A DNA stretch of 64,000 nt from Candidatus Magasanikiibacteriota bacterium (GTDB taxonomy: Bacteria > Patescibacteriota > Patescibacteriia > Magasanikbacterales > GWA2-37-8): NCBI GenBank assembly GCA_046590235.1, contig JBKJTY010000035.1:14722-78721 (forward strand), read 5' to 3'. Position numbers and translations under genes: made by a program. Below are positions 13,228-30,672 of this stretch, one piece after another. How positions within the stretch are numbered: the stretch's first letter is position 1; every line of letters starts with the position of its first letter. The notes below the pieces were generated by a model, which saw only the letters and a program-made list of their open reading frames with translations, searched no databases and was not told the DNA's origin.

Positions 13228-13257
13228 TAAAAAAGTAGCTGGAAAGCTACTTTTTTA
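13228..13257. terminator. bidirectional terminator hairpin at the elp3 3' end
   Basis: aaaaaaGTAGCTggaaAGCTACtttttt overlaps the elp3 stop codon. Confidence 0.5.
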
Positions 13258-14902
13258 ATGTTTTAACCATATAAGTCTTCTCGAGTTTGTAGCCCCATTT
13301 GCGGTAATAACCACGAACGCCCACACCCGATATAACTGCCAGTTTATCAACTTTACTTTTCTTAACAATTTTTTCCGCCTGCAACACCAACTTTCTTCCT
13401 AAACCTTTATGCTGTGTAGATTCTTTCTGCTGCTTGCCGATACGCACTAGCTGGCCATAAGTATGAAGCTCGCGAATATACGCGCCATATGAGTTTAACT
13501 TTTTATTAGGATGGATAACTGGAACGGTAACTACACGCAAGCGACAGAAAGCAAACACTACTTGGCGCTTCTTATCTTCGTAGCTAATAAAATATTCAAT
13601 ACCACCACGAGTTTCGTATTCATCAATAAACAAAACCGGTTCGAGTTGTTTTGCTGTCCAACCGTCAGTATTCACGTGTCCGATTTCACGACAGCGCAAA
13701 CATTTGCACGTAGTACCATCTTTCTTCATTTCCATTTCAATTACTTGGCGAAGGTTGGTGACCTTGTTACCTTCTTCAATGTATTGGCCTGGAATATCAC
13801 GGATCAAGCGTGAGACACGGGAATAGCGAGGGAGGTGGCTTTTAAATGTTTTGATAATATCGATCAAGTCACGAGTTGGATATGCTTTGTATTTACCCTG
13901 CATAAACAAGTCGTACAATTCAGAACCCTTCACGACCGTGCAGGGGTAAATCTTAATCATATCTGGTTTAAATCCTGGATCAGTAAAAATACTTTCCATC
14001 ATCTCTAAGTCCATTTGCGGAGTAGCACCAGGTAATTGTGGCATCAAATGGAAGTCCACCTTATAGCCATAGTTACGGAGCAATTCAGTTGCTTCACGAG
14101 AACGCTCAGTTGTATGTCCGCGCTTGGTCAATGCTAAAACACGGTCGTCTGTATGCTGGATACCAAGTTCAAGGCGAGTACAGCCTTGTTCGCGCATCTG
14201 CCAAATAGTATGTTTGTTAATACAATCCGGGCGAGTTTCCAAGGTCAGGCCAATAATACGGTGTTTCGCACCTTCATTAAGTCTCTGTTGTTTATATAAT
14301 TCAGCTTTTAATTTTTCGAGCGAAGATGTTTCAGTCAGTTTAGTAAATTTCGGATTCTTTTTTCCGTAGGTATTGCACGCTTCAAATGATCGGAGGATAA
14401 ACCAATATTGGTAGGCGAGGGGATAGGAGTTCCAGGTACCGCCTTTAACAATGAATTCAATTTTATCAGTCGGATGTCCGTTATTTTCGAGCGCTTCAAT
14501 ACGACGGGCCATTTGCTCAAAGGGATCAAAATGTAACATGAGCGCGCGCATCGCGGCAGGCTCTTCAGACAAATAACTTTTCGGCATACGTTCGTCCAAT
14601 GGGCAATAGGTACATTCGCCAGGACATGGATATGGTTTAACTAAAGAAGTAACAATCGTAACACCAGATAATGTTCGGACGGCACGGCGCATTAACATTT
14701 TTTCAAGCGCCTTATTTTGAGTAATTCTTTTCTTCTTCAGCAAGGTATGGTAAACTCTCAAAAGTTCAGTTTTGGTCGGGAAACTCTTCTCACTTTTTAT
14801 ACCAGTCACCGTATCGCGTTTCAGGGTATTAAAAGCAGCCTCGTCTTTCGGGAGTTTAATAGCCGCAGCAAGAATAATTTTTTCAGCATTATGGTTAAGC
14901 AT
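13247..14902 (-). CDS. elp3: Elp3-family radical SAM/GNAT protein (tRNA U34 carboxymethyl-modification enzyme homolog)
   Basis: Radical-SAM cysteine cluster CPGECTYCP, a TIM-barrel radical-SAM region, and a C-terminal GNAT-like segment (QHKGLGRKLVLQAEKIV...). 551 aa. Confidence 0.7.
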   Translation of the reverse strand: MLNHNAEKIILAAAIKLPKDEAAFNTLKRDTVTGIKSEKSFPTKTELLRVYHTLLKKKRITQNKALEKMLMRRAVRTLSGVTIVTSLVKPYPCPGECTYCPLDERMPKSYLSEEPAAMRALMLHFDPFEQMARRIEALENNGHPTDKIEFIVKGGTWNSYPLAYQYWFILRSFEACNTYGKKNPKFTKLTETSSLEKLKAELYKQQRLNEGAKHRIIGLTLETRPDCINKHTIWQMREQGCTRLELGIQHTDDRVLALTKRGHTTERSREATELLRNYGYKVDFHLMPQLPGATPQMDLEMMESIFTDPGFKPDMIKIYPCTVVKGSELYDLFMQGKYKAYPTRDLIDIIKTFKSHLPRYSRVSRLIRDIPGQYIEEGNKVTNLRQVIEMEMKKDGTTCKCLRCREIGHVNTDGWTAKQLEPVLFIDEYETRGGIEYFISYEDKKRQVVFAFCRLRVVTVPVIHPNKKLNSYGAYIRELHTYGQLVRIGKQQKESTQHKGLGRKLVLQAEKIVKKSKVDKLAVISGVGVRGYYRKWGYKLEKTYMVKTLKK

Positions 14903-15598
14903 AAAGGCCTCGACATTATACAGAAAACACGGGATGACTACAACACGATTGCCGAGTCATTTTCCGATACCCGCCAACATGCGGGTGAACTGGTGCAGTT
15001 TAGACCATTTTTGGCTGAAGGTCAATACATCCTGGATTGGGGCTGTGGCAATGGCCGGCTATTGTACTTATTAAAAGATTTCGATATTCACTACTTCGGC
15101 GTTGACCAAAGCCAAGGACTTTTGAAGCAGGCTAAGAAAAACCCGCTTGTGGAGTTCCAAGATGCTAAGTTTTTTTGCACTGCGCACAAAGATAAAAAGT
15201 TTGATAACGATTACTTCGACCTCGTTTTCATGATCGCATCATTCCATCATTTACCTGATGAAAAAACTCGCCTCGCACAGCTCAAAAAGACTTTTAAAGA
15301 AATGAAGTCCGGCGCACGAATTATTATGGTTAATTGGAACCTAGAAAGCGACTGGGCTAAAGCAAAATTTAAAAAAGATTGGGAAAAAATTGATGAAAAT
15401 GATTTCTTAATCCCATGGAAAAGTAAGGATGGCGCAATCATCGTTCAGCGCTATTATCACCACTTTGAAAAACAAGAAATCGAAGATTTAGTAACAAAAA
15501 TCGGTTTCACTATTGAGAAACTGGCATTTGCTACAAATGGAGAGTGGAGTGATAAGAAAGCCGGTAAAAACCTCGTTTTAATCGCTAAAAAGCCCTAG
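14891..15598 (+). CDS. Trm9/ALKBH8-type class I SAM methyltransferase (putative tRNA cm5U methyl ester synthase)
   Basis: ESFSDTRQ (the Trm9 FSxTR motif), motif I LDWGCGNGRLL, FMIASFHHLPDEKTRL (compare IAVxHHxxxxERR), LIPW and QRYYHHFEKQEIEDL (compare ALKBH8 HRYYHVF). Its ATG at 14891 overlaps the divergent elp3 start (14900-14902) by 12 nt. Confidence 0.7.
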   Translation: MVKHKGLDIIQKTRDDYNTIAESFSDTRQHAGELVQFRPFLAEGQYILDWGCGNGRLLYLLKDFDIHYFGVDQSQGLLKQAKKNPLVEFQDAKFFCTAHKDKKFDNDYFDLVFMIASFHHLPDEKTRLAQLKKTFKEMKSGARIIMVNWNLESDWAKAKFKKDWEKIDENDFLIPWKSKDGAIIVQRYYHHFEKQEIEDLVTKIGFTIEKLAFATNGEWSDKKAGKNLVLIAKKP

Positions 15599-15624
15599 TA
15601 TAGCGACTGCTGTGGATAATTGCA

Positions 15625-15653
15625 TTGACCTTAGGCAAAAATAGGACTATACT
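15625..15653 (+). promoter_or_regulatory. promoter TTGACC-N17-TATACT driving the GC-rich cassette
   Basis: TTGACC at 15625-15630, a 17-nt spacer, TATACT at 15648-15653. Confidence 0.5.
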
Positions 15654-15667
15654 CGTTCAATAGTTAT

Positions 15668-15775
15668 ATGAATCATATTCAATCCTACAATTTGTGCGCA
15701 ATGAAGAAGTTGGTTATTACCACCTCTATTGTCGTGCGTTTTGATAGCCAGGGTGAATATGGTCTTCGTGCATAA
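15668..15775 (+). CDS. small ORF (35 aa) at the 5' end of the GC-rich cassette; possible leader peptide or small protein
   Basis: ATG 15668 ... TAA. The ORF is just downstream of the promoter; there is no homology evidence. Confidence 0.2.
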   Translation: MNHIQSYNLCAMKKLVITTSIVVRFDSQGEYGLRA

Positions 15776-15936
15776 ACAAGTGCATCAATCCATCCTTTCA
15801 CCCTGAACTACCAAGTTCGGGGCTTTTTTATGAGAGGGGTGTAACGTCGTTTGGAGCAGCCAGTTTTAAGAGAGATTGGCTGATCCAAAGGATCCAGTTC
15901 GCTATATCGGCGACTGTCACACGGCAGGAGTCTCAG

Positions 15937-16233
15937 ATGAACATCGATCGGCACATGGAAGGCATTCGCACTAGGAGCGACATCGAGAAGGAGCGCAAGC
16001 AGAAGGAGCGCGAGAAGCTCGAGGACAGCGTCAAGCTGTCGATGTGGATCGGGAACAACCAGAAGGCCAGGGGAGTTTTGCAGCTCCCGTCGGACATCAA
16101 CGTCCTTCCGGGCTGCGGCTGCGAGAAGAAGGACCAGATCGGCAAGAAGGGGTTCTCGATGACTCGCCTCAACGTGAGCCTGCCCTGGGAACACTACCGG
16201 TGCCCGAAGAAGGCTAAGAAGGGTAACGCCTAG
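15937..16233 (+). CDS. hypothetical basic protein (98 aa), GC-rich with foreign codon usage
   Basis: RBS AGGAG 7 nt upstream. Codons are strongly G/C-ending (GAG, AAG, CTC, GGC), unlike the flanking genes. Sequence is KERKQKEREKLED...HYRCPKKAKKG. Confidence 0.5.
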   Translation: MNIDRHMEGIRTRSDIEKERKQKEREKLEDSVKLSMWIGNNQKARGVLQLPSDINVLPGCGCEKKDQIGKKGFSMTRLNVSLPWEHYRCPKKAKKGNA

Positions 16234-16254
16234 TTTCCGAAGCTGCTGCCGTGC

Positions 16255-16310
16255 GGAGGGAGGCGGTCCATATATTTCGACGAACAGTCGAATACATGGC
16301 CGCCCCCTCC
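16255..16310 (+). other. long hairpin (15-bp stem with a nested inner hairpin) between the ORF and the ribozyme
   Basis: GGAGGGAGGCGGTCCAT ... ATGGCCGCCCCCTCC; the loop contains a TTCGAC/GTCGAA palindrome. Confidence 0.5.
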
Positions 16311-16312
16311 GA

Positions 16313-16383
16313 GCCTCTATTCTTTCCTTAGTAAGGAAACTGATGAGTCCCTGATAGTTATGAAGAGGACGAAAATAGAAGTG
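16313..16383 (+). ncRNA. hammerhead self-cleaving ribozyme, type III topology (predicted cleavage between 16322 and 16323)
   Basis: Helix III 5' strand CUCUAU (16315-16320), then UUC with cleavage predicted after it. Helix I is UUUCCUU-AGU-AAGGAAA (16323-16339). CUGAUGA is at 16340-16346. Helix II is GUCC-16 nt loop-GGAC, with G10.1-C11.1 conserved. GAAA is at 16371-16374. Helix III 3' strand is AUAGAAG. Confidence 0.6.
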
Positions 16384-16477
16384 TAATCATATAGATCAGT
16401 GAGTTGTTGTATGACGATTGACTGATCTACATGATTTTGCACTTTCACCGGCCACACGGCCGCATTGGAGGCAGCAC

Positions 16478-16657
16478 ATGTGTGAGGCAAAGGATGGTTC
16501 GTTTAGTGGCGTTTCCACACAGAGCGATCTTTCGCCTGAAGACCAGGCTGAACTCGCTAAGCTCGTTACGCCAACATCGGTCACACCGGTCAAGCCGCGC
16601 GAGCTCATCGATGCGCGCAAGCAGTGCTCGGAGCGCACGAAGCCGCCGATCTGGTAG
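16478..16657 (+). CDS. hypothetical small acidic protein (59 aa), GC-rich
   Basis: RBS GGAGG upstream of the ATG; same foreign codon usage as its neighbours. Confidence 0.4.
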   Translation: MCEAKDGSFSGVSTQSDLSPEDQAELAKLVTPTSVTPVKPRELIDARKQCSERTKPPIW

Positions 16658-16804
16658 TTCTTTTTTCCTCCCGGTCGGCCAGGTATGTGTACCTGGCCGA
16701 CCGCGGAGTTCAATCTGAACGATAAGCTATTTTTAAAAAATGGTTTACCGGTCCGATTGACCTACGACTACCATACCGGTGGTCTAAACAAAGGAGTAGT
16801 TCGC

Positions 16805-17194
16805 ATGAGCCGGCCGTTCAAGGTCTTTGGTGCGCTGAGCAGTGAAGGCCTCAAGTTTCTCGAGGAGTTCTTCGAGGGAGGAAAGGAGGAGTTCGAGCAG
16901 TCGCTGGCGTTGGTCCTCGACAAGGGCCATCTCAACCTGAAGAAGGGTGTGCGGATCGAGATCCAGATCCCGCTGATCGTCTTCACTTTGAAGGCGAGCG
17001 CGCAGACGAAGCTCGAGGGCATGTCGCTCGTGAGCGACTCGCTCGTCGAGGTCGCAAAGACCGAAAAGGGGAAGGAAAAGTTTTTCGTCTTCGAGCGCTT
17101 TAAGCTCGTTGAGAAGTACCCCGCCGCCAAGACGCCCCAGCTCGCGATCGTTCCGACCGAGGCGGAAGCTGGCGTCGCCGAAACGGCCGCCTAA
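16805..17194 (+). CDS. hypothetical protein (129 aa), GC-rich
   Basis: RBS AAGGAG upstream; G/C-ending codons; no recognisable motif. Confidence 0.5.
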   Translation: MSRPFKVFGALSSEGLKFLEEFFEGGKEEFEQSLALVLDKGHLNLKKGVRIEIQIPLIVFTLKASAQTKLEGMSLVSDSLVEVAKTEKGKEKFFVFERFKLVEKYPAAKTPQLAIVPTEAEAGVAETAA

Positions 17195-17213
17195 CGGTGG
17201 TCACAACACAATA

Positions 17214-17247
17214 GGGGATGGTAGCAGCTACGCTGGCTACCATCCCC
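17214..17247 (+). terminator. strong hairpin terminator closing the GC-rich cassette
   Basis: GGGGATGGTAGC-agctacgctg-GCTACCATCCCC, a 12-bp stem. Confidence 0.55.
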
Positions 17248-17315
17248 GAACCTTATTCTTATTTTGTTAACGTCCATCACGGCCGTTTTTTTATTTTTTA
17301 TGGTATAATAAAGCC

Positions 17316-18224
17316 ATGACACTTTCCATCATCCTAGCCGCCATCGGTTTTTCCCTCCTAGCGATCGTCACCATCCTCGATAAGTTTATTGTCTCCAACG
17401 AAAAAGTTTCACCGTTGGTCTTTGTTTTTTATTCTACTATAATTGCACTACCACTCGTTCTTATTACACCGTTCGCAGAACCGCTCGCCACTACGCGTCT
17501 CTGGATTTTTGCCGGTGTCAGTGGTACGAGTTACGCAATAGCGCTTTATACATTGTATAAAGGTTTTCAAGCTAGCGAAGTAAGTCATGTCGGGCCGCTA
17601 GTCGGTGCGATGGTACCAATTTTTACAATTCTTCTCAGCACATTTTTTGCTCCTGAAATATTTTCACAAAATCAAATGTTTGGGATCGGCTTACTCGTAT
17701 TTGGTTCTCTGATTATTTCAATTGAGAATGATAAACATTTTTTTGGTTGGCATGAAAGCATGTTGTGGGGAGTGGTAGCAGCATTTTTCTTTGCACTTTT
17801 TTATACGACGGCAAAACCAGTCTACGATGGTGCAGGTTTTTATCCGGGTTTTGTTTGGGTTTGGTTGCCAATGGGGCTGTGGGGAATCGCGCTACTCGTA
17901 TTTTCTAAAGCAGTTCGCAAGCATGTTTTTACAAAACGAAAAAAACAAGCAGCTACAAATCATAAAGACACACTTATTATTATTTCCAATAAAGTTGCGG
18001 CCTTCGCGGCTGTCGGTCTGACACAATACGCTGTCTCGATTGGGAGTGTAACGATCGTGAATGCGCTCACCGGTTTACAATATGCAGTACTTGTAACATT
18101 AGTTGGTGTCTTATCTCATTTTAAACCAAAATTATTTAAAGAAGAGTATACACATGGTGAGGTGTTGCAAGAAACACTTGCGGTACTACTTATAATCGCT
18201 GGTTTAGCTTTGTTATTGGTTTAG
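17316..18224 (+). CDS. polytopic membrane protein, probably a DMT/EamA-like transporter
   Basis: About 10 TM segments in two halves; there is an extended -10 (TGGTATAAT) upstream. Confidence 0.4.
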   Translation: MTLSIILAAIGFSLLAIVTILDKFIVSNEKVSPLVFVFYSTIIALPLVLITPFAEPLATTRLWIFAGVSGTSYAIALYTLYKGFQASEVSHVGPLVGAMVPIFTILLSTFFAPEIFSQNQMFGIGLLVFGSLIISIENDKHFFGWHESMLWGVVAAFFFALFYTTAKPVYDGAGFYPGFVWVWLPMGLWGIALLVFSKAVRKHVFTKRKKQAATNHKDTLIIISNKVAAFAAVGLTQYAVSIGSVTIVNALTGLQYAVLVTLVGVLSHFKPKLFKEEYTHGEVLQETLAVLLIIAGLALLLV

Positions 18225-19276: not shown

Positions 19277-19350
19277 GCGCACTTAGCTCAGTTGGTTAGA
19301 GCATCTCGTTTACACCGAGAGGGTCGAGGGTTCGAATCCCCCAGTGCGCA
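19277..19350 (+). tRNA. tRNA-Val (anticodon TAC)
   Basis: Acceptor stem GCGCACT/AGTGCGC, D-arm GCTC..GAGC, anticodon stem TCTCG/CGAGA with loop TTTACAC, T-loop TTCGAAT. No CCA is encoded. There is one A-C mismatch in the T-stem. Confidence 0.8.
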
Positions 19351-19356
19351 CGTATG

Positions 19357-19492: not shown

Positions 19493-19554
19493 ATGCCGTT
19501 GGGATTAATTTCTCAACACAACCATAAACGTTTTTTACAACCCAAGGAGTAGTG

Positions 19555-20412
19555 ATGGAAAAGGTGCGTGCCGTAGCGGTTCTGTTGTTCATGTTTACAA
19601 CCTCCAACCTTGCCATCGCGGCAGAGAAAGAGCTCTCGATTCCCAAGGATCAGCTAGCCCTGCTCGACAAGGCCAGGAAGGCCCTCGTCAAGATCGCCGC
19701 CAAGAGCGACCGTGCGAAAGGGTTGTTGGCTTTGTACAACAACCACGCAGTTCCGGCCCTTACCGATAGCGACCAGGTTCGGATCGTTTCCATCCCGAAG
19801 GTGGTGCCGTACTTTTTTGTGGCGGCGAACCCGCGGGTTGAGACGCAAGTCTCGAATGAGGGTGGAACATTCGCCTATTTTAACTGTACTGAACAGCCGA
19901 GCTTGCTCTTGAAGAATTTCCCGACTGTCTCAGAAACGGTCCATGGCATTATGCTGGCCCACGAGTTGGTGCATGCTGAGGACTGCCTGTTCGGAGGCGA
20001 GGGGGCAAATAAACAGCATGATGATGCTTGGTTGATCGGCGAATTGCATGCGCACAACACTGTCTGGATGCTGCTTAACGACATCTCCGACGGAGGTTGG
20101 AATAAGGTTGTGACAGGTTCTCTCCGTCGGCGAATGCAGATGATGAGCGCCGGCCAGGACAACCCGAAAGCAATGGTCTTCGGATATTCTACAGATGATA
20201 TCGTGAGCATTGAAAAAATGTTCGGTGCCCAAGATGATGTCGCAATCGGCGCCTTGATTGCCCAACTCCAGGTTGATGTGAACATGCTCAAAATCGCGCT
20301 CAATACACCTGGCAGCGGCGTGCTCTACGACGTGTCTCCTGAACTGGCAGAAAATCAGTTGAGGTTAGTCAAAGCGTTCTACAAAGAGAACGAACAAGCT
20401 ATTCAGCAGTAG
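19555..20412 (+). CDS. secreted protein with an HExxH-like motif (possible metallopeptidase-like), GC-rich cassette A
   Basis: RBS AAGGAG; signal peptide (AVAVLLFMFTTSNLAIAAE); motif AHELVHAED; GC-rich codon usage. The ORF track's first M is a GTG at 19552. Confidence 0.5.
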   Translation: MEKVRAVAVLLFMFTTSNLAIAAEKELSIPKDQLALLDKARKALVKIAAKSDRAKGLLALYNNHAVPALTDSDQVRIVSIPKVVPYFFVAANPRVETQVSNEGGTFAYFNCTEQPSLLLKNFPTVSETVHGIMLAHELVHAEDCLFGGEGANKQHDDAWLIGELHAHNTVWMLLNDISDGGWNKVVTGSLRRRMQMMSAGQDNPKAMVFGYSTDDIVSIEKMFGAQDDVAIGALIAQLQVDVNMLKIALNTPGSGVLYDVSPELAENQLRLVKAFYKENEQAIQQ

Positions 20413-21933: not shown

Positions 21934-24069
21934 ATGTTTATGCAAAAAAGTAAAAGGATTTCGACGCTATCAATCGCGTTACTTAGTTTGCTTTCTTTGG
22001 CAACTTCACTATTTAATCCAATAGCAGCGTCAGCGCTTGAAACATGGACTGAACGTCGGCCTGAAGGCATCGATGGCGATAATACTTGGGAAGGTGCTAG
22101 CGATGCTGATGGGTCAAACCTGATCGCAATAAACACAGCTGGTGAATTATTCATTTCGACAGATAGTGGTGTTAGCTGGAATCCGACTAATCCAGTACTA
22201 GATTCTGAAAATTGGAGCACGGTAGCATCTGATGCAGATGGTTCAAATTTAATTGTTGCACGCAATGGTCGTGCTTACATTACGACTAATGGCGGTTCTA
22301 GCTGGGCTGAAACACAACCAGCAGGGGATACAGATAAGTTGTGGATAACTGTTGGTAGTGATGCTGACGGCTCCACACTTATGGCAGCTGCTAGTTTTGG
22401 TCGTTTGTACATCTCTGCAAACGGTGGTACTACATGGACCGAACGCCAGCCAGCTGGAGATGTTAATAGTAGTTGTCAAAGCATGGTATCAGACACTACT
22501 GGTACTAATCTTTTTGTTCAATGTGCGAACCGTCTTTATACTTCAACTGATGGTGGTGTCAATTGGACTGAACGCCAGCCTATGGGTAATACAAATTTTT
22601 TTGCGAGAGATCTTGCTTCTGATGCGACAGGTTTAAAACTTGTTGCGGGCGTTGAAGGTGGTCGCCTGTATACGTCAGCCGACGGTGGCGCTACATGGAC
22701 CGAGCGTCAACCTGCTGGGGATACAAATCAACAGTGGGTAGGACTTGATTCGGGTGCAGATGGCACACATTTGATCGCAGCGGCGAACTCTGGTCGTTTG
22801 TACACATCCTCAGATAGCGGTGTTACTTGGACTGAGCGCCGGCCAGCAGGTGATGTAGATATAGGATGGAGATTTGCGGCCATGGGCGGTAATTTTACTT
22901 TCTTTGTAGGTGCAAATAATGGTAGGTTGTATACGGGTATTATAGATGAAGCCGGCCCAATAATTACCACTTACTCCCCAGCTGACAATGCTACCGATGT
23001 TGCTGTTACTGCCAATCTCACTATCACCCTAGATAGCACCTTCGTCACCGGAACAAACAAAAATATTATCATTAAAAAATCTTCTGACGATAGTATTGTT
23101 GAAACAATTTCAGTTAGCAGTAGTCAAGTAATCGCAAGTGGTTTAGAAATTACCATTAATCCAAGCGCATCTTTGAGCTATAGTACAAGCTACTATGTCC
23201 AAATGGACGCTGGTGCGTTCCAAGACGCCTATAGCAATGACATGCTAGCTATCTCCAATACAACAACCTGGAACTTTACAACTGTCGCCGCACCACGAGT
23301 TGGTGGTGGCGGATATAGTCCACCACTCGTTTCCACACCAGTCGCGCCTGTAATCACCATGCCAATTTACGAACCACCCCTCATCCCCAATCCAGCGGAT
23401 CCGGTAACAATCTCACCAATAAACATTGCGCCACCTATTATTGTGCAACCTGTCATTGCTCCTGTTGCACCAGTCATTACGCCGGTGGTCGTTGTTCCAG
23501 AAGTAACAACCCCTGTTGTCGTCACGCCTGTCTCAGCCCCGCTCATTACTGCGCCACCAATCCAAGTTAAACTCCTCAACCCAGGCATCCGCTCAGTAGA
23601 AGTGTTAAATCTTCAAAAAACACTTAACCAACTCGGTTATACTGTTGCACAAACTGGTCCTGGCTCAATCGGCAATGAAACAAATTTCTTCGGTAAAGCC
23701 ACCTATAACGCGCTTCTGAATTTCCAAAAATTAAATAATTTGCCAACAACCGGTATTGCCGATAAAGCTACAATAGAAACAATCAATCAAAAGTCTGTTA
23801 CAGGAGAAGTACTAGGTGTAAAACTCATTAAATTTACACGCAACTTAGCAACCGGCAGTAATGGCGATGATGTTAAACGCTTACAGCAGTGGCTTAATGC
23901 CAACGGCTTCACGGTCGCGGAGTCAGGTCCTGGCTCTGTTGGTAAAGAAACTAAACAGTTCGGTAAAGCAACCCGCGAAGCACTCAAACGCTTCCAAAAG
24001 GATAGTGGTGAAAAAGAAACGGGAATCTTTAGCGTAAACACAAAAGAGAAGATTAATGGAATGCTCTAA
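21934..24069 (+). CDS. secreted BNR/Asp-box beta-propeller protein with an Ig-like domain, a Pro-rich linker and two C-terminal peptidoglycan-binding domains
   Basis: Signal peptide. At least six Sx[DN]xGxxW repeats (STDSGVSWN, TTNGGSSWA, SANGGTTWT, STDGGVNWT, SADGGATWT, SSDSGVTWT). Pro/Val linker. Two PG_binding_1-like repeats (LQKTLNQLGYTV..., VKRLQQWLNANGFTV...). Confidence 0.65.
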   Translation: MFMQKSKRISTLSIALLSLLSLATSLFNPIAASALETWTERRPEGIDGDNTWEGASDADGSNLIAINTAGELFISTDSGVSWNPTNPVLDSENWSTVASDADGSNLIVARNGRAYITTNGGSSWAETQPAGDTDKLWITVGSDADGSTLMAAASFGRLYISANGGTTWTERQPAGDVNSSCQSMVSDTTGTNLFVQCANRLYTSTDGGVNWTERQPMGNTNFFARDLASDATGLKLVAGVEGGRLYTSADGGATWTERQPAGDTNQQWVGLDSGADGTHLIAAANSGRLYTSSDSGVTWTERRPAGDVDIGWRFAAMGGNFTFFVGANNGRLYTGIIDEAGPIITTYSPADNATDVAVTANLTITLDSTFVTGTNKNIIIKKSSDDSIVETISVSSSQVIASGLEITINPSASLSYSTSYYVQMDAGAFQDAYSNDMLAISNTTTWNFTTVAAPRVGGGGYSPPLVSTPVAPVITMPIYEPPLIPNPADPVTISPINIAPPIIVQPVIAPVAPVITPVVVVPEVTTPVVVTPVSAPLITAPPIQVKLLNPGIRSVEVLNLQKTLNQLGYTVAQTGPGSIGNETNFFGKATYNALLNFQKLNNLPTTGIADKATIETINQKSVTGEVLGVKLIKFTRNLATGSNGDDVKRLQQWLNANGFTVAESGPGSVGKETKQFGKATREALKRFQKDSGEKETGIFSVNTKEKINGML

Positions 24070-26912: not shown

Positions 26913-28666
26913 AATCATCGTTTGTCATAACTATCGGCGGGGAAGCAGGCTTTGGTATTATGTCAGCCGGTTTAACGCTTGCAAAAATTGCCACCCGCTC
27001 AGGTTTTAGTTCATTTGGCTACGCAGAATATCCTTCAATTGTTCGTGGAGGATACAACGTCATGCATATTGCTGTTGGGGCTGAAGTTCGCGCGCCAAAA
27101 AAGTCTGTCGACTTTCTCATTGCCTTAAATCAAGAATCAATTAAACAAAACGCAGCAATTTTAGAACATGATGCCTGTGTTATTTTTGACGCTGACCAAA
27201 AAATTACTACGACGACACTAGCTCCGAGTATTGAAAAAATTCCAGTTCCATTTAACCGTTTTGCTAAAGAAATTGGTGGAAGTATTTTGATGCGCAACAC
27301 CGTCGCGCTCGGGGCGTTAGTAGCGCTTGCAGGTGGAGACTTAGAAATTCTCAAAGAATTAATTGATGAAGAATTTGCAACCAAGAAAAAAGATGTTGCT
27401 GTCCGTAATAAAAAATGTGCCGAAGCTGGTTATAATTATGTCAAAAAAGAATTTGCTTCGTTGATAAGAACTGATCTAAAACCTTTCAGTAAAAAAACAG
27501 AACGCTTGGTCATGACTGGTAATGACGCCATTGCACTCGGAGCAATTGCTGCCGGTATGCAATTTGCGGCGATTTATCCAATGACCCCAACATCAAACAT
27601 TCTCCATATTCTTGCTCCACACCAAGAAGAATTTGGGTATATTTACAAACAACCAGAAGATGAAATTTCTGCATTAACTATGGCCATTGGTGCATCGTTT
27701 GCTGGTGCTCGTTCAATGGTGGCGACAGCCGGTGGGGGCTTTTGTCTCATGACTGAAGGCTACGGACTGGCTGCTATGACCGAAACACCTGTTGTGATCG
27801 TCGTAGGGATGCGCGGTGGGCCGGCAACCGGCCTTCCCACATGGACTGAACAAGGTGATCTACAATTCATACTGCACGCGCATCAAGGCGAATTTCCACG
27901 CATCGTGCTCGCTGCTGGAGATCTTGAGGAAGCCTTTTCGCTTACCATGGATTCTTTTAATCTGGCAGAAAAATATCAAACACCGGTTATTGTACTTGTT
28001 GATAAACATCTCTGTGAGAGTTTTGCCTCAACCAAACCATTTGCGTATGGTAAATACAGTATTGAACGCGGAAAAACGTTGCTCAAATACCAAGAAAATT
28101 ATCCACGTTACGCCTTTGCTGATGATGGAATTTCACCGCGCGCTTTTCCAGGCAGCGGTAATCACATCTTGGCAAACTCCGATGAACACAATGAACGAGG
28201 GTTTACTGATGAAAGCAGTAAAAACCGTATTCATATGATGGATAAACGCATGAAAAAATTGGAAACGTGCGCTAGAGTAGAAATGCCTGAACCAATAATG
28301 TATGGGCCTAAAAATGCTGATTTAACAATTGTTTCCTGGGGAAGTAATAAGGGTGTCATTCTCGACGCAATACAAAAGTACGACAATGTAAATTATCTCC
28401 ATATCACTTGGATGAACCCGTTTCCAACAGCCTTTGTAAAAAAGATTTTGGCAGGAAGTGAGCGCATCATGATTATGGAATGTAATTACAACGGACAGCT
28501 CGACCAACTTATCCAAGAAAAAACCGGCGTAATCATTAAAGAAAAATGGTTCAAATACGACGGCCGCCCATTCTTTGTTGAAGAAGTTATAGAAAAAGTA
28601 AATTCTCTTTTAGCACAACCGTATGGCATTGCCATTCCAAAACAAACTAGAAATAAAGTCGCCTAG
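26909..28666 (+). CDS. 2-oxoacid:ferredoxin oxidoreductase subunit alpha (fused gamma-alpha)
   Basis: POR-gamma-like N-terminus (ITIGGEAGFGIMSAGLTLAKIA) followed by alpha domains. The ATG overlaps the acd stop as ATGA. Confidence 0.75.
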   Translation: MKSSFVITIGGEAGFGIMSAGLTLAKIATRSGFSSFGYAEYPSIVRGGYNVMHIAVGAEVRAPKKSVDFLIALNQESIKQNAAILEHDACVIFDADQKITTTTLAPSIEKIPVPFNRFAKEIGGSILMRNTVALGALVALAGGDLEILKELIDEEFATKKKDVAVRNKKCAEAGYNYVKKEFASLIRTDLKPFSKKTERLVMTGNDAIALGAIAAGMQFAAIYPMTPTSNILHILAPHQEEFGYIYKQPEDEISALTMAIGASFAGARSMVATAGGGFCLMTEGYGLAAMTETPVVIVVGMRGGPATGLPTWTEQGDLQFILHAHQGEFPRIVLAAGDLEEAFSLTMDSFNLAEKYQTPVIVLVDKHLCESFASTKPFAYGKYSIERGKTLLKYQENYPRYAFADDGISPRAFPGSGNHILANSDEHNERGFTDESSKNRIHMMDKRMKKLETCARVEMPEPIMYGPKNADLTIVSWGSNKGVILDAIQKYDNVNYLHITWMNPFPTAFVKKILAGSERIMIMECNYNGQLDQLIQEKTGVIIKEKWFKYDGRPFFVEEVIEKVNSLLAQPYGIAIPKQTRNKVA

Positions 28667-30069: not shown

Positions 30070-30113
30070 CTGGGGAGAAATGAGCTTATAGTATAAGGCT
30101 CATTTCTCCCCAG
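30070..30113 (+). promoter_or_regulatory. perfect 16-bp stem-loop in the 5' leader of the GC-rich ORF
   Basis: CTGGGGAGAAATGAGC-ttatagtataag-GCTCATTTCTCCCCAG, between the promoter and the start codon. Confidence 0.5.
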
Positions 30114-30146
30114 CACGTTACGGCGATGGGGCGCCAAGGGGACCAA

Positions 30147-30560
30147 ATGCAGTCTGTTGTGGGTACGTACTTCCGTCTTGCTCGTGAAAACGAGGTTATC
30201 GACGAAGACGGGTACTTCCACGGTTATATCTGCCAGATGGACCACGGCATCGAACTCGATCGAAGCCGACCGGTGTTCTCGATCGAGGCACTCAAGGAGT
30301 ACCTCGACAAGACCAACACCGTCGATACTGGCGAGTTCGTCGCGACCGCCCGGAAGCTCAAGTTTCCGGAAGAAAAGACGGCTCGCGATCTGTTCTATGA
30401 CGACATGTACGCCCTCGAGGAAGAAGGCGATCGCGTCCGGGCTAAGCGAGCTCTCCCGATGGAGAAGTTCATGAATCTCATGATCCTGGCCGGCCTGTCG
30501 GAACGCGAGCGGGTCGCGGCAAACCTCTTCGGAGGAAGCGCGCAGCACGCAGCCGCGTAA
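30147..30560 (+). CDS. hypothetical protein, GC-rich with foreign codon usage (alternative start at 30126)
   Basis: RBS AAGGGGA upstream of the 30147 ATG; G/C-ending codons; no recognisable motif. Confidence 0.45.
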   Translation: MQSVVGTYFRLARENEVIDEDGYFHGYICQMDHGIELDRSRPVFSIEALKEYLDKTNTVDTGEFVATARKLKFPEEKTARDLFYDDMYALEEEGDRVRAKRALPMEKFMNLMILAGLSERERVAANLFGGSAQHAAA

Positions 30561-30641
30561 TCAAGCGCCTAGTGTCATATGGTGTGAGTAATCGCAACCA
30601 GACCTAGTACTACCGCTCTGACAAGCACAACTTGTCGGAGC

Positions 30642-30672
30642 CCACCAAAAAGAACCCAATAATGGGTTCTTT
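30642..30672 (+). terminator. rho-independent terminator
   Basis: aaaaAGAACCCAataaTGGGTTCTtttt. Confidence 0.55.

Follow-up and report, generated by a model that had tools for sequence, protein, structure and literature searches.

Results

A hammerhead motif in the spacer of a small GC-rich operon

The stretch of DNA analysed here, a 64-kb window, contains a GC-rich island with three small co-oriented open reading frames (ORFs), and the untranslated spacer downstream of the first of these (ORF1) carries a motif with the complete core of a type III hammerhead ribozyme. The elements of the putative operon would follow one another in the order leader peptide/attenuator, ORF1, a first hairpin (hairpin A), the hammerhead, a second hairpin (hairpin B) and, finally, ORF2 and ORF3. 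The hammerhead and its parts, the latter taken from the sequence, are located as follows.

16314-16381, + strand: predicted type III hammerhead ribozyme (match to Rfam family RF00008; minimum-free-energy (MFE) fold; orthologues in the related loci L003, L005/L007 and L030; covariation)
16315-16320, + strand: 5' strand of helix III, CTCTAT
16322, + strand: final base of the cleavage triplet TTC
16323-16339, + strand: helix I, TTTCCTT-AGT-AAGGAAA, a perfect 7-bp hairpin with an AGU loop
16340-16346, + strand: core, CTGATGA
16347-16350 and 16367-16370, + strand: helix II, GTCC and GGAC, closing a 16-nt loop
16371-16374, + strand: core, GAAA
16375-16381, + strand: 3' strand of helix III, ATAGAAG

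As RNA, 16314-16381 (+) reads CCUCUAUUC / UUUCCUU-AGU-AAGGAAA / CUGAUGA / GUCC-(16 nt)-GGAC / GAAA / AUAGAAG, with the core positions C3, U4, G5, A6, N7, G8 and A9 followed by G12, A13 and A14, and with C16322 (not G) as H17. All three core-adjacent pairs are intact, namely A16374-U16321 (A15.1-U16.1), G16347-C16370 (G10.1-C11.1) and U16323-A16339 (N1.1-N2.1), and the predicted cleavage site lies between C16322 and U16323. Helix III, which is open while helices I and II are capped, in agreement with the Rfam structure line, consists of six Watson-Crick pairs (16316-16321 with 16374-16379, the obligatory A15.1-U16.1 pair included); beyond these come an A.C mismatch (C16315/A16380) and then a possible C16314-G16381 pair. 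An earlier, sequence-only reading of this DNA had described a complete hammerhead with all of its elements in these positions, a description borne out by the core as read from the sequence and by a full-length match to the Rfam model; its assignment of a type III topology likewise agrees with the MFE fold, the Rfam structure line and the compensatory changes found in orthologues. Its statement that AUAGAAG pairs back to CUCUAU holds for six pairs and fails at the A.C mismatch, and its remark on type III being the rarer topology in bacteria conflicts with Perreault et al. 2011, according to whom type II is as frequent in bacteria as types I and III (PMC3088659).

In a sensitive scan of 16150-16550, the Rfam Hammerhead_3 model (RF00008) matches 16315-16380 (+) over its entire length (model positions 1-54 of 54) with 43.3 bits and an E-value of 2.6e-8, the latter referring to the 401-base stretch searched and amounting to ~1e-6 to 1e-5 when scaled to the whole window. 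The motif exceeds chance, and the match is statistically strong though under the curated cut-off, the gathering score of Hammerhead_3 being 48.5 bits, an operational database cut-off and no structural feature of the class. The covariance-model hit expected in the sequence-only reading is thus present by E-value (2.6e-8) and formally below threshold by score. With a dedicated covariance model, a single copy of the ribozyme is detected in the window and one in each related locus carrying it.

Orthologous hammerheads with compensatory changes

Hammerheads occupy the same position in four lineages, between an ORF1 homologue with its hairpin on one side and an ORF3 homologue on the other. Outside the window, they are located at the following sites.

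L003, 3595-3661: orthologous hammerhead, 32 bits with the Rfam model and 94 bits with the dedicated model
L005/L007, 2565-2631: orthologous hammerhead, 41.9 bits with the Rfam model
L030, 8023-8089: orthologous hammerhead, 73 bits with the dedicated model

The core nucleotides are identical in the window, L003, L005 and L030, as well as in L022, a contig with a hammerhead at an unrelated locus (see below), and compensatory changes are found in helices I, II and III. In helix III, the CUAU/AUAG of the window is replaced by ACGAU/AUCGU in L005 and L030, with L003 keeping the pairing in a shifted register (AAGAGA); in helix I, one U-A pair is exchanged for C-G and another for U.G; and in helix II, one C-G pair becomes U-A. 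Because MAFFT misaligned the ribozymes, these changes were quantified on a covariance-model alignment of five sequences sharing the same architecture, where, as the alignment is fitted to a model of the hammerhead structure itself, the values are to be read against controls: 97.6% of the cells are paired and 7-8 of the 17 pairs show two-sided change, with 0 of 500 shuffles matching the observed pairing or covariation score and pairing dropping to 41-61% when the partner is slid by 1-3 columns.

Within the element, the closely related L005 and L030 differ by substitutions only in loop 1 and distally in loop 2. When the window is compared with L003, identity amounts to 70-90% in the flanking genes, 57-70% in ORF1 and 82-88% in hairpin A together with the ribozyme, and nothing is alignable downstream of the core GAAA, homology stopping at the 3' edge of the ribozyme (16381/16382 versus 3661/3662). 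At the level of sequence, this conservation profile is the signature expected of a maintained catalytic RNA. The ORF3 of the window and that of L003 are each nearer to the ORF3 of more distant genomes than to one another, and this kinship, together with the abrupt end of homology, suggests a recombination breakpoint at the ribozyme.

Flanking hairpins and predicted folds

The hammerhead lies between two stable hairpins.

16255-16310, + strand: hairpin A (-36 kcal/mol, z -7.4)
16385-16436, + strand: hairpin B, directly 3' of the ribozyme, with 23-nt arms (-24.5 kcal/mol, z -6.6)

Hairpin A begins 22 nt after the ORF1 stop codon and ends 4-5 nt before the ribozyme; it is kept in L003 and shows compensatory changes between L005 and L030, and an equivalent also follows ORF1 in L012 and L013, two related loci that do not carry the ribozyme. 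Hairpin B, whose sequence is unconserved in L003 and L005, is better drawn at 16385-16436 than at 16392-16422, the limits given in the sequence-only reading, which was otherwise right that strong hairpins flank the motif on both sides.

Both the MFE and the centroid structure of the isolated element correspond to the hammerhead three-way junction, and the MFE fold of the nascent transcript up to the 3' end of the ribozyme consists, in the window, L005 and L022, of a stable hairpin, a gap of 0-4 nt and a complete hammerhead. Within the latter, a 7-bp stem I carries a loop of 3-4 nt and a 4-bp stem II carries a conserved 16-nt loop (NUGAYNGU...A.AA), whose UGA...UGA pattern could form tandem G.A pairs that extend stem II.

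Leader, cassette genes and neighbourhood

Apart from the hammerhead and its flanking hairpins, the putative operon comprises the following parts, for which GC3 denotes the GC content at third codon positions and UTR the untranslated region.

15625-15653, + strand: promoter-like site (TTGACC, 17 nt, TATACT), the only sigma-70-like match in 15400-17500 and a consensus match alone
15701-15775, + strand: 24-codon leader peptide ORF, MKKLVITTSIVVRFDSQGEYGLRA (from the sequence)
15749-15829, + strand: putative antiterminator/terminator pair, in which CAGGGTGAA (15749-15757) can pair with TTCACCCTG (15797-15805)
15857-15897, + strand: conserved 5'-UTR element, CAGCCAGU...AAGAGAGAUUGGCUG and then GAUCC-AAA-GGAUC, ahead of ORF1
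15937-16233, + strand: ORF1, 98 aa, GC3 0.89; charged N-terminal helices, then C-x-C ... W-x-H-x2-C
16478-16657, + strand: ORF2, 59 aa, GC3 0.67, with GGAGG upstream (from the sequence)
16672-16703, + strand: hairpin C, an inverted repeat with a perfect 14-bp stem and no T-run behind it
16805-17194, + strand: ORF3, 129 aa from an ATG behind AAAGGAG, GC3 0.84 (from the sequence)
17214-17247, + strand: hairpin D, an inverted repeat (perfect 12-bp stem) 3' of ORF3, with a T-rich stretch between it and the EamA gene

The start of the operon, made up of promoter-like site, leader ORF, pairing segment with terminator and 5'-UTR element, is kept in all related loci. The TTGAC block of the promoter-like site is retained in relatives; the leader ORF stays in frame in L003, where it differs by a 3-nt indel, and comparable short ORFs are present in L012, L013, L019 and L032. 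TTCACCCTG overlaps a terminator stem (15801-15822) with a T-run, a terminator-like site, and GGGTGAA/TTCACCC complementarity recurs in the window, L003, L012, L013, L019 and L033. Finally, the 5'-UTR element belongs to a stretch that is 83-87% identical to L003, recurs in L012 and L013, and occurs in L005 in two copies, each ahead of a cistron. The arrangement looks like a leader-peptide transcription attenuator; neither the leader nor the 5'-UTR element matches an Rfam family.

Between leader and ORF1, some relatives contain members of a third orphan family, ORF-X (L005 1508-1939, L004 3252-3656, L030 6965-7396 and L032 1764-2366), which is preceded by a separate copy of the 5'-UTR element, is trailed by a separate hairpin and is not present in the window; in L032, one protein (P0131) combines an N-terminus resembling ORF1 with a C-terminus resembling ORF-X.

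ORF1 belongs to a small family found in this clade only, with homologues at the same locus in relatives that are 25-53% identical and share an invariant W, G, P, C-x-C, R and W-x-H-x2-C. An exhaustive protein search gave five further ORF1 matches, one of which is a spurious repeat protein, and in a word-indexed protein search ORF1 and ORF3 matched themselves alone. The AlphaFold model of ORF1 (mean predicted local distance difference test score, pLDDT, 77.5) is confident enough to use and has no fold match in the PDB. ORF3, for which the public record gives 169 aa and a start at 16685, has distant homologues at the same position in L003, L005, L012, L013 and L030 and forms a family more divergent than that of ORF1. 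Because ORF2 has no counterpart in L003, L005, L012 or L013, its coding status is uncertain. None of the cassette proteins matches a Pfam, PHROG or PADLOC family; a defence system or a toxin-antitoxin pair was considered and set aside, as no PADLOC or Pfam family fits any of them.

Both junctions of the island with its neighbours are independently assembled in two Logan contigs (run SRR31159418). The Logan assembly breaks within ORF2, L002 ending at ~16563 and L001 starting at ~16556, which may reflect strain variation or a drop in coverage.

In relatives, the locus shares the gene order ELP3-like radical SAM, Trm9-like methyltransferase, small GC-rich genes, EamA and GH5, with tRNA-Val after GH5 in the window and in L005. 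The ELP3-like radical-SAM/GNAT gene and the divergently oriented Trm9-like methyltransferase gene stand together at 13247-15598, and one homologue of the latter is named as a tRNA methyltransferase that esterifies a modified uridine; by annotation, the pair suggests a bacterial tRNA modification pathway of the mcm5U (5-methoxycarbonylmethyluridine) type directly upstream of the leader-controlled operon. Homologues of the methyltransferase that are 52-60% identical to it bear names of Patescibacteria or Magasanikbacteria, and the window also encodes a fermentative set (pyruvate kinase, ADP-forming acetyl-CoA synthetase and 2-oxoacid:ferredoxin oxidoreductase) as well as SHMT (serine hydroxymethyltransferase); a host from the Patescibacteria is most likely, an assignment that is tentative. 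Downstream, tRNA-Val(UAC) at 19277-19351 precedes an orphan ORF of 286 aa (19552-20412), in which the initial 600 nt have at least 54% GC, and other GC-rich patches of the window lie at 22601-22850, 27651-27950 and 30101-30650.

The GC-rich island is a long-standing feature of the locus

Over ~15900-17250 the island has 55-62% GC, compared to ~41% around it, and GC3 reaches 0.89 in ORF1 and 0.84 in ORF3 versus 0.35-0.44 in neighbouring genes. The same imbalance is found in every relative (L003, L005, L012, L013, L019, L030 and L032-L034), where cassette genes have a GC3 of 0.59-0.93 and their neighbours one of 0.35-0.53; homologous GC3-rich genes are present at this locus in all relatives recovered, including those whose flanking methyltransferase is no more than ~60% identical. 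Genomes sharing 84-87% identity in the flanking proteins have only 53% in ORF1. Because the cassette shares its locus and leader across the clade, its odd composition is best read as a conserved property of a long-resident, fast-evolving operon, for whose lasting high GC3 and fast divergence biased gene conversion and repeated allelic exchange are possibilities. A recent foreign insertion is rejected on the same ground, the cassette occupying the same locus with high GC3 throughout the clade. The GC-rich foreign cassette of the sequence-only reading thus stands as GC-rich and falls as foreign; similarly, of two foreign-codon ORFs with a cut in the polycistronic transcript between them, what survives is a predicted cut in the spacer of two co-oriented small ORFs.

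A phage origin was rejected, as no DNA match was found among 50,697 phage records, no PHROG family matched, and two scans of viral contigs did not contain the motif. No direct or inverted repeats bound the island in the window, and no integrase or transposase is present at the locus, the only recognisable genes around the island being those for ELP3, the methyltransferase, EamA and GH5. That the locus might be hypervariable or shuffling, as seemingly different ORF sets on contigs with an identical methyltransferase suggested, was also considered and discarded, since an all-against-all BLASTP comparison showed these contigs to be the same sequence with differing gene calls.

A second locus with the same ribozyme architecture

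A motif scan of JGI metagenomes yielded ten contigs, a first and too strict version of the motif having given none, and the loop-2 motif has no match in GTDB species genomes. Four of the contigs (L021, L022, L024 and L028) carry a hammerhead equal in architecture and length to that in the window: a triloop closes its 7-bp stem I, and its 4-bp stem II bears a loop of 16 nt. This L022-type hammerhead scores 50 bits with the dedicated model. The L022-type locus is unrelated, its neighbours, as assigned by reading ORF translations, being ClpP, a RelE-like toxin/antitoxin pair and a DHH phosphoesterase. At L022 3933-4580, a lipoprotein-like ORF with 58-66% GC in a background of ~40% GC is followed by a long hairpin abutting the hammerhead and then by an intrinsic terminator, with no downstream gene on the ribozyme strand. 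In the operon of the window and its relatives, the ribozyme always comes after a GC3-rich orphan gene of small size and a hairpin of very high stability.

This recurrence raises the possibility, which we consider doubtful, that the hammerheads with a 7-bp stem I/triloop and a 4-bp stem II/16-nt loop form a distinct sub-family which, in uncultured bacteria with AT-rich genomes, serves as a portable module for making 3' ends and consists of a GC3-rich orphan gene, a long hairpin and the ribozyme. If so, the ribozyme, whose position in the present operon coincides exactly with the end of homology between close relatives, would delimit a gene cassette open to exchange, and a special class of fast-evolving genes with aberrant composition would have ribozyme-made ends in place of terminators.

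Among the other contigs, L020 contains, behind the ORF of a 472-aa repeat protein, a type III hammerhead-like motif (1685-1748) whose 6-bp stem I is closed by the loop AAA, and further hammerhead-like matches are found in L023, L026, L029, L025 and L027.

Discussion

A proposed role in forming the ends of two messages

What the analysis shows is a significant motif that is conserved and covaries, its placement among ORFs and hairpins, and the folds predicted for it; from these we infer co-transcription of the genes, cleavage in vivo and consequences for RNA stability as follows. Once the polymerase has moved past 16381, the nascent RNA would form hairpin A and then, directly, the three-way junction, and would cleave itself after C16322. 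The upstream product would be an ORF1 message in which hairpin A is followed by a final 12 nt bearing a 2',3'-cyclic phosphate, and the downstream product, carrying ORF2 and ORF3, would begin with a 5'-OH, the helix I and helix II hairpins and hairpin B. In this way, two messages whose ends are defined and structured would arise from one attenuator-controlled transcript, and they could differ in stability and in translation. The element is a genuine and probably active ribozyme, and we assign a probability of about 0.8 to the reading as a whole, that is, a functional type III hammerhead in the operon spacer whose co-transcriptional self-cleavage ends the ORF1 message past hairpin A and leaves a 5'-OH, structured downstream end. 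Because homology between the window and L003 breaks off at the ribozyme, the hammerhead of L022 has no gene downstream and the element constantly abuts a hairpin, a role on the upstream side is favoured: the primary selected function is probably the formation of a 3' end and the uncoupling of the upstream message, with effects on ORF2 and ORF3 being secondary or alternative.

Several observations weigh against this proposal. The score of 43.3 bits is ~5 below the curated 48.5, and a scan of the whole window at Rfam gathering thresholds accordingly lists only tRNA-Val (19277-19350) and not the hammerhead, which a default Rfam scan misses because of that shortfall. The covariation set comprises four orthologous variants and one paralogous variant, and the model was built from two of them. 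The folding energy of the element is no better than that of shuffled sequences (z -0.5 to -1.0), a weak value that is usual for short AU-rich ribozymes and that makes thermodynamics alone uninformative. In a 247-nt fold, long-range pairing displaces helix III, so that cleavage would need co-transcriptional folding. No convincing tertiary contact between loops 1 and 2, nor a pseudoknot, was found, the loop complementarities extending over just 3 nt, and fast natural hammerheads normally have such a contact. ORF1, its hairpin and ORF3 are present in L012 and L013, and ORF1 only in L019, all three without a hammerhead, which makes the ribozyme dispensable for the operon; L032-L035 have other gene combinations, also without it. 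Moreover, the 5'-OH product of the glmS ribozyme is degraded by RNase J1 in Bacillus, which bears on how stable the downstream message would be.

Some of these points would fit a relic that no longer cleaves, or a structured spacer or protein-binding site merely resembling a hammerhead: the score under the gathering threshold, the lack of an evident tertiary contact, a folding energy that shuffles equal, and related operons that work without the element. Against this stands the pattern of substitution, since a core that is invariant in four diverged orthologues, stems that change in a compensatory manner and loops that vary freely argue for a maintained catalytic fold and not a relic; in addition, the criteria by which Perreault et al. 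rejected candidates do not apply, as the element has neither a mispair adjacent to the core nor multiple bulges in short stems (PMC3088659). We therefore hold a relic or look-alike to be very unlikely. Less improbable, though still unlikely, is a selected role on the downstream side. The hammerhead would then be a natural insulator, removing the upstream context and freeing or stabilising the 5' UTR of ORF2/ORF3, which would be expressed only once cleavage has taken place. Hairpin B directly follows the ribozyme, as in RiboJ-type designs; in the 247-nt fold, 16246-16252 pairs with the spacer of the ORF2 ribosome-binding site in a helix that cleavage would split; and the stretch from ribozyme to ORF3 is 88-97% conserved between L005 and L030. 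However, both this long-range pairing and hairpin B are unconserved in L003 and L005, the homology of window and L003 ends at the 3' edge of the ribozyme and thereby links it to the upstream module, and the L022 hammerhead is followed by a terminator alone, with no downstream gene on that strand.

A third explanation takes the hammerhead as a trace of a mobile element, be it viroid-like, a retro-element or a prophage fragment, that imported the GC-rich genes. The strongly anomalous GC3 of the cassette would agree with such an import, as would the second pairing of a GC-rich gene with a hammerhead at an unrelated locus and the fact that many bacterial hammerheads reside in prophages or selfish elements (PMC3088659). 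Yet the window has one ribozyme copy and no repeats bounding the island, neither phage DNA nor phage protein families match and no viral contig contains the motif, no integrase or transposase is seen in the locus, and all relatives have the same locus, the same leader/attenuator and high GC3, so that we regard this origin as extremely improbable.

Comparison with known hammerheads and cleaving messenger elements

By core, topology and covariation, the element is placed among the type III hammerheads, failing the Rfam score cut-off only. With RF00008 (clan CL00010) it shares the CUGAUGA ... GAAA core, C at H17, an open helix III, a match over the full length of the model and covariation of the helices; it differs in scoring 5 bits under the cut-off, in combining a 7-bp stem I and 3-4-nt loop with a 4-bp stem II and conserved 16-nt loop, and in showing no evident loop-loop contact or pseudoknot. 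Curated Rfam thresholds thus miss this hammerhead sub-type. In a full-text literature search, no paper links hammerheads with Patescibacteria or the candidate phyla radiation (CPR), the papers that hold both words having other subjects.

Natural counterparts are the gene-flanking hammerheads described by Perreault et al. 2011, which cleave ~2-kb native polycistronic fragments in vitro and whose biological role was left unsettled (PMC3088659). Like the element of the window, those of prophages lie in intergenic spacers of co-oriented genes and were proposed to cut transcripts into gene-length messages; unlike it, they occur in arrays, whereas here a single ribozyme, outside any phage or integrase context, belongs to an operon that is syntenic across the clade (PMC3088659). 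In addition, the present element invariably goes together with a stabilising hairpin upstream of it and with a leader-peptide attenuator. Viroid-like, retrozyme and satellite elements have paired or repeated ribozymes at the limits of a unit that can circularise, typically in many copies, in contrast to one ribozyme on one strand at a fixed chromosomal position. Its single copy and the absence of phage context and of repeats therefore make it a member neither of the prophage multi-hammerhead systems nor of the viroid-like elements.

RiboJ synthetic insulators place a type III hammerhead, that of the satellite RNA of tobacco ringspot virus (sTRSV), and a hairpin upstream of a ribosome-binding site, where cleavage leaves a structured leader with a 5'-OH. 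A type III hammerhead followed by a hairpin is common to both; here, however, the arrangement is natural, hairpin B is unconserved and the ribozyme is linked to the upstream gene, making the likeness a functional analogy only. In glmS and other cis-cleaving bacterial mRNA elements, self-cleavage produces a 5'-OH end that alters the fate of the message; glmS belongs to a different ribozyme class, and nothing indicates ligand dependence in the present element.

The role of most bacterial hammerheads is still unclear, and, while leaving knowledge of the ribozyme class itself unchanged, this locus contributes a natural hammerhead with good support, located in an operon that is conserved on the chromosome of an uncultured and probably patescibacterial lineage and is not of phage type. 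Its fixed order of gene, stable hairpin and ribozyme under an attenuator offers a concrete, testable case of ribozyme-made ends of bacterial mRNAs.

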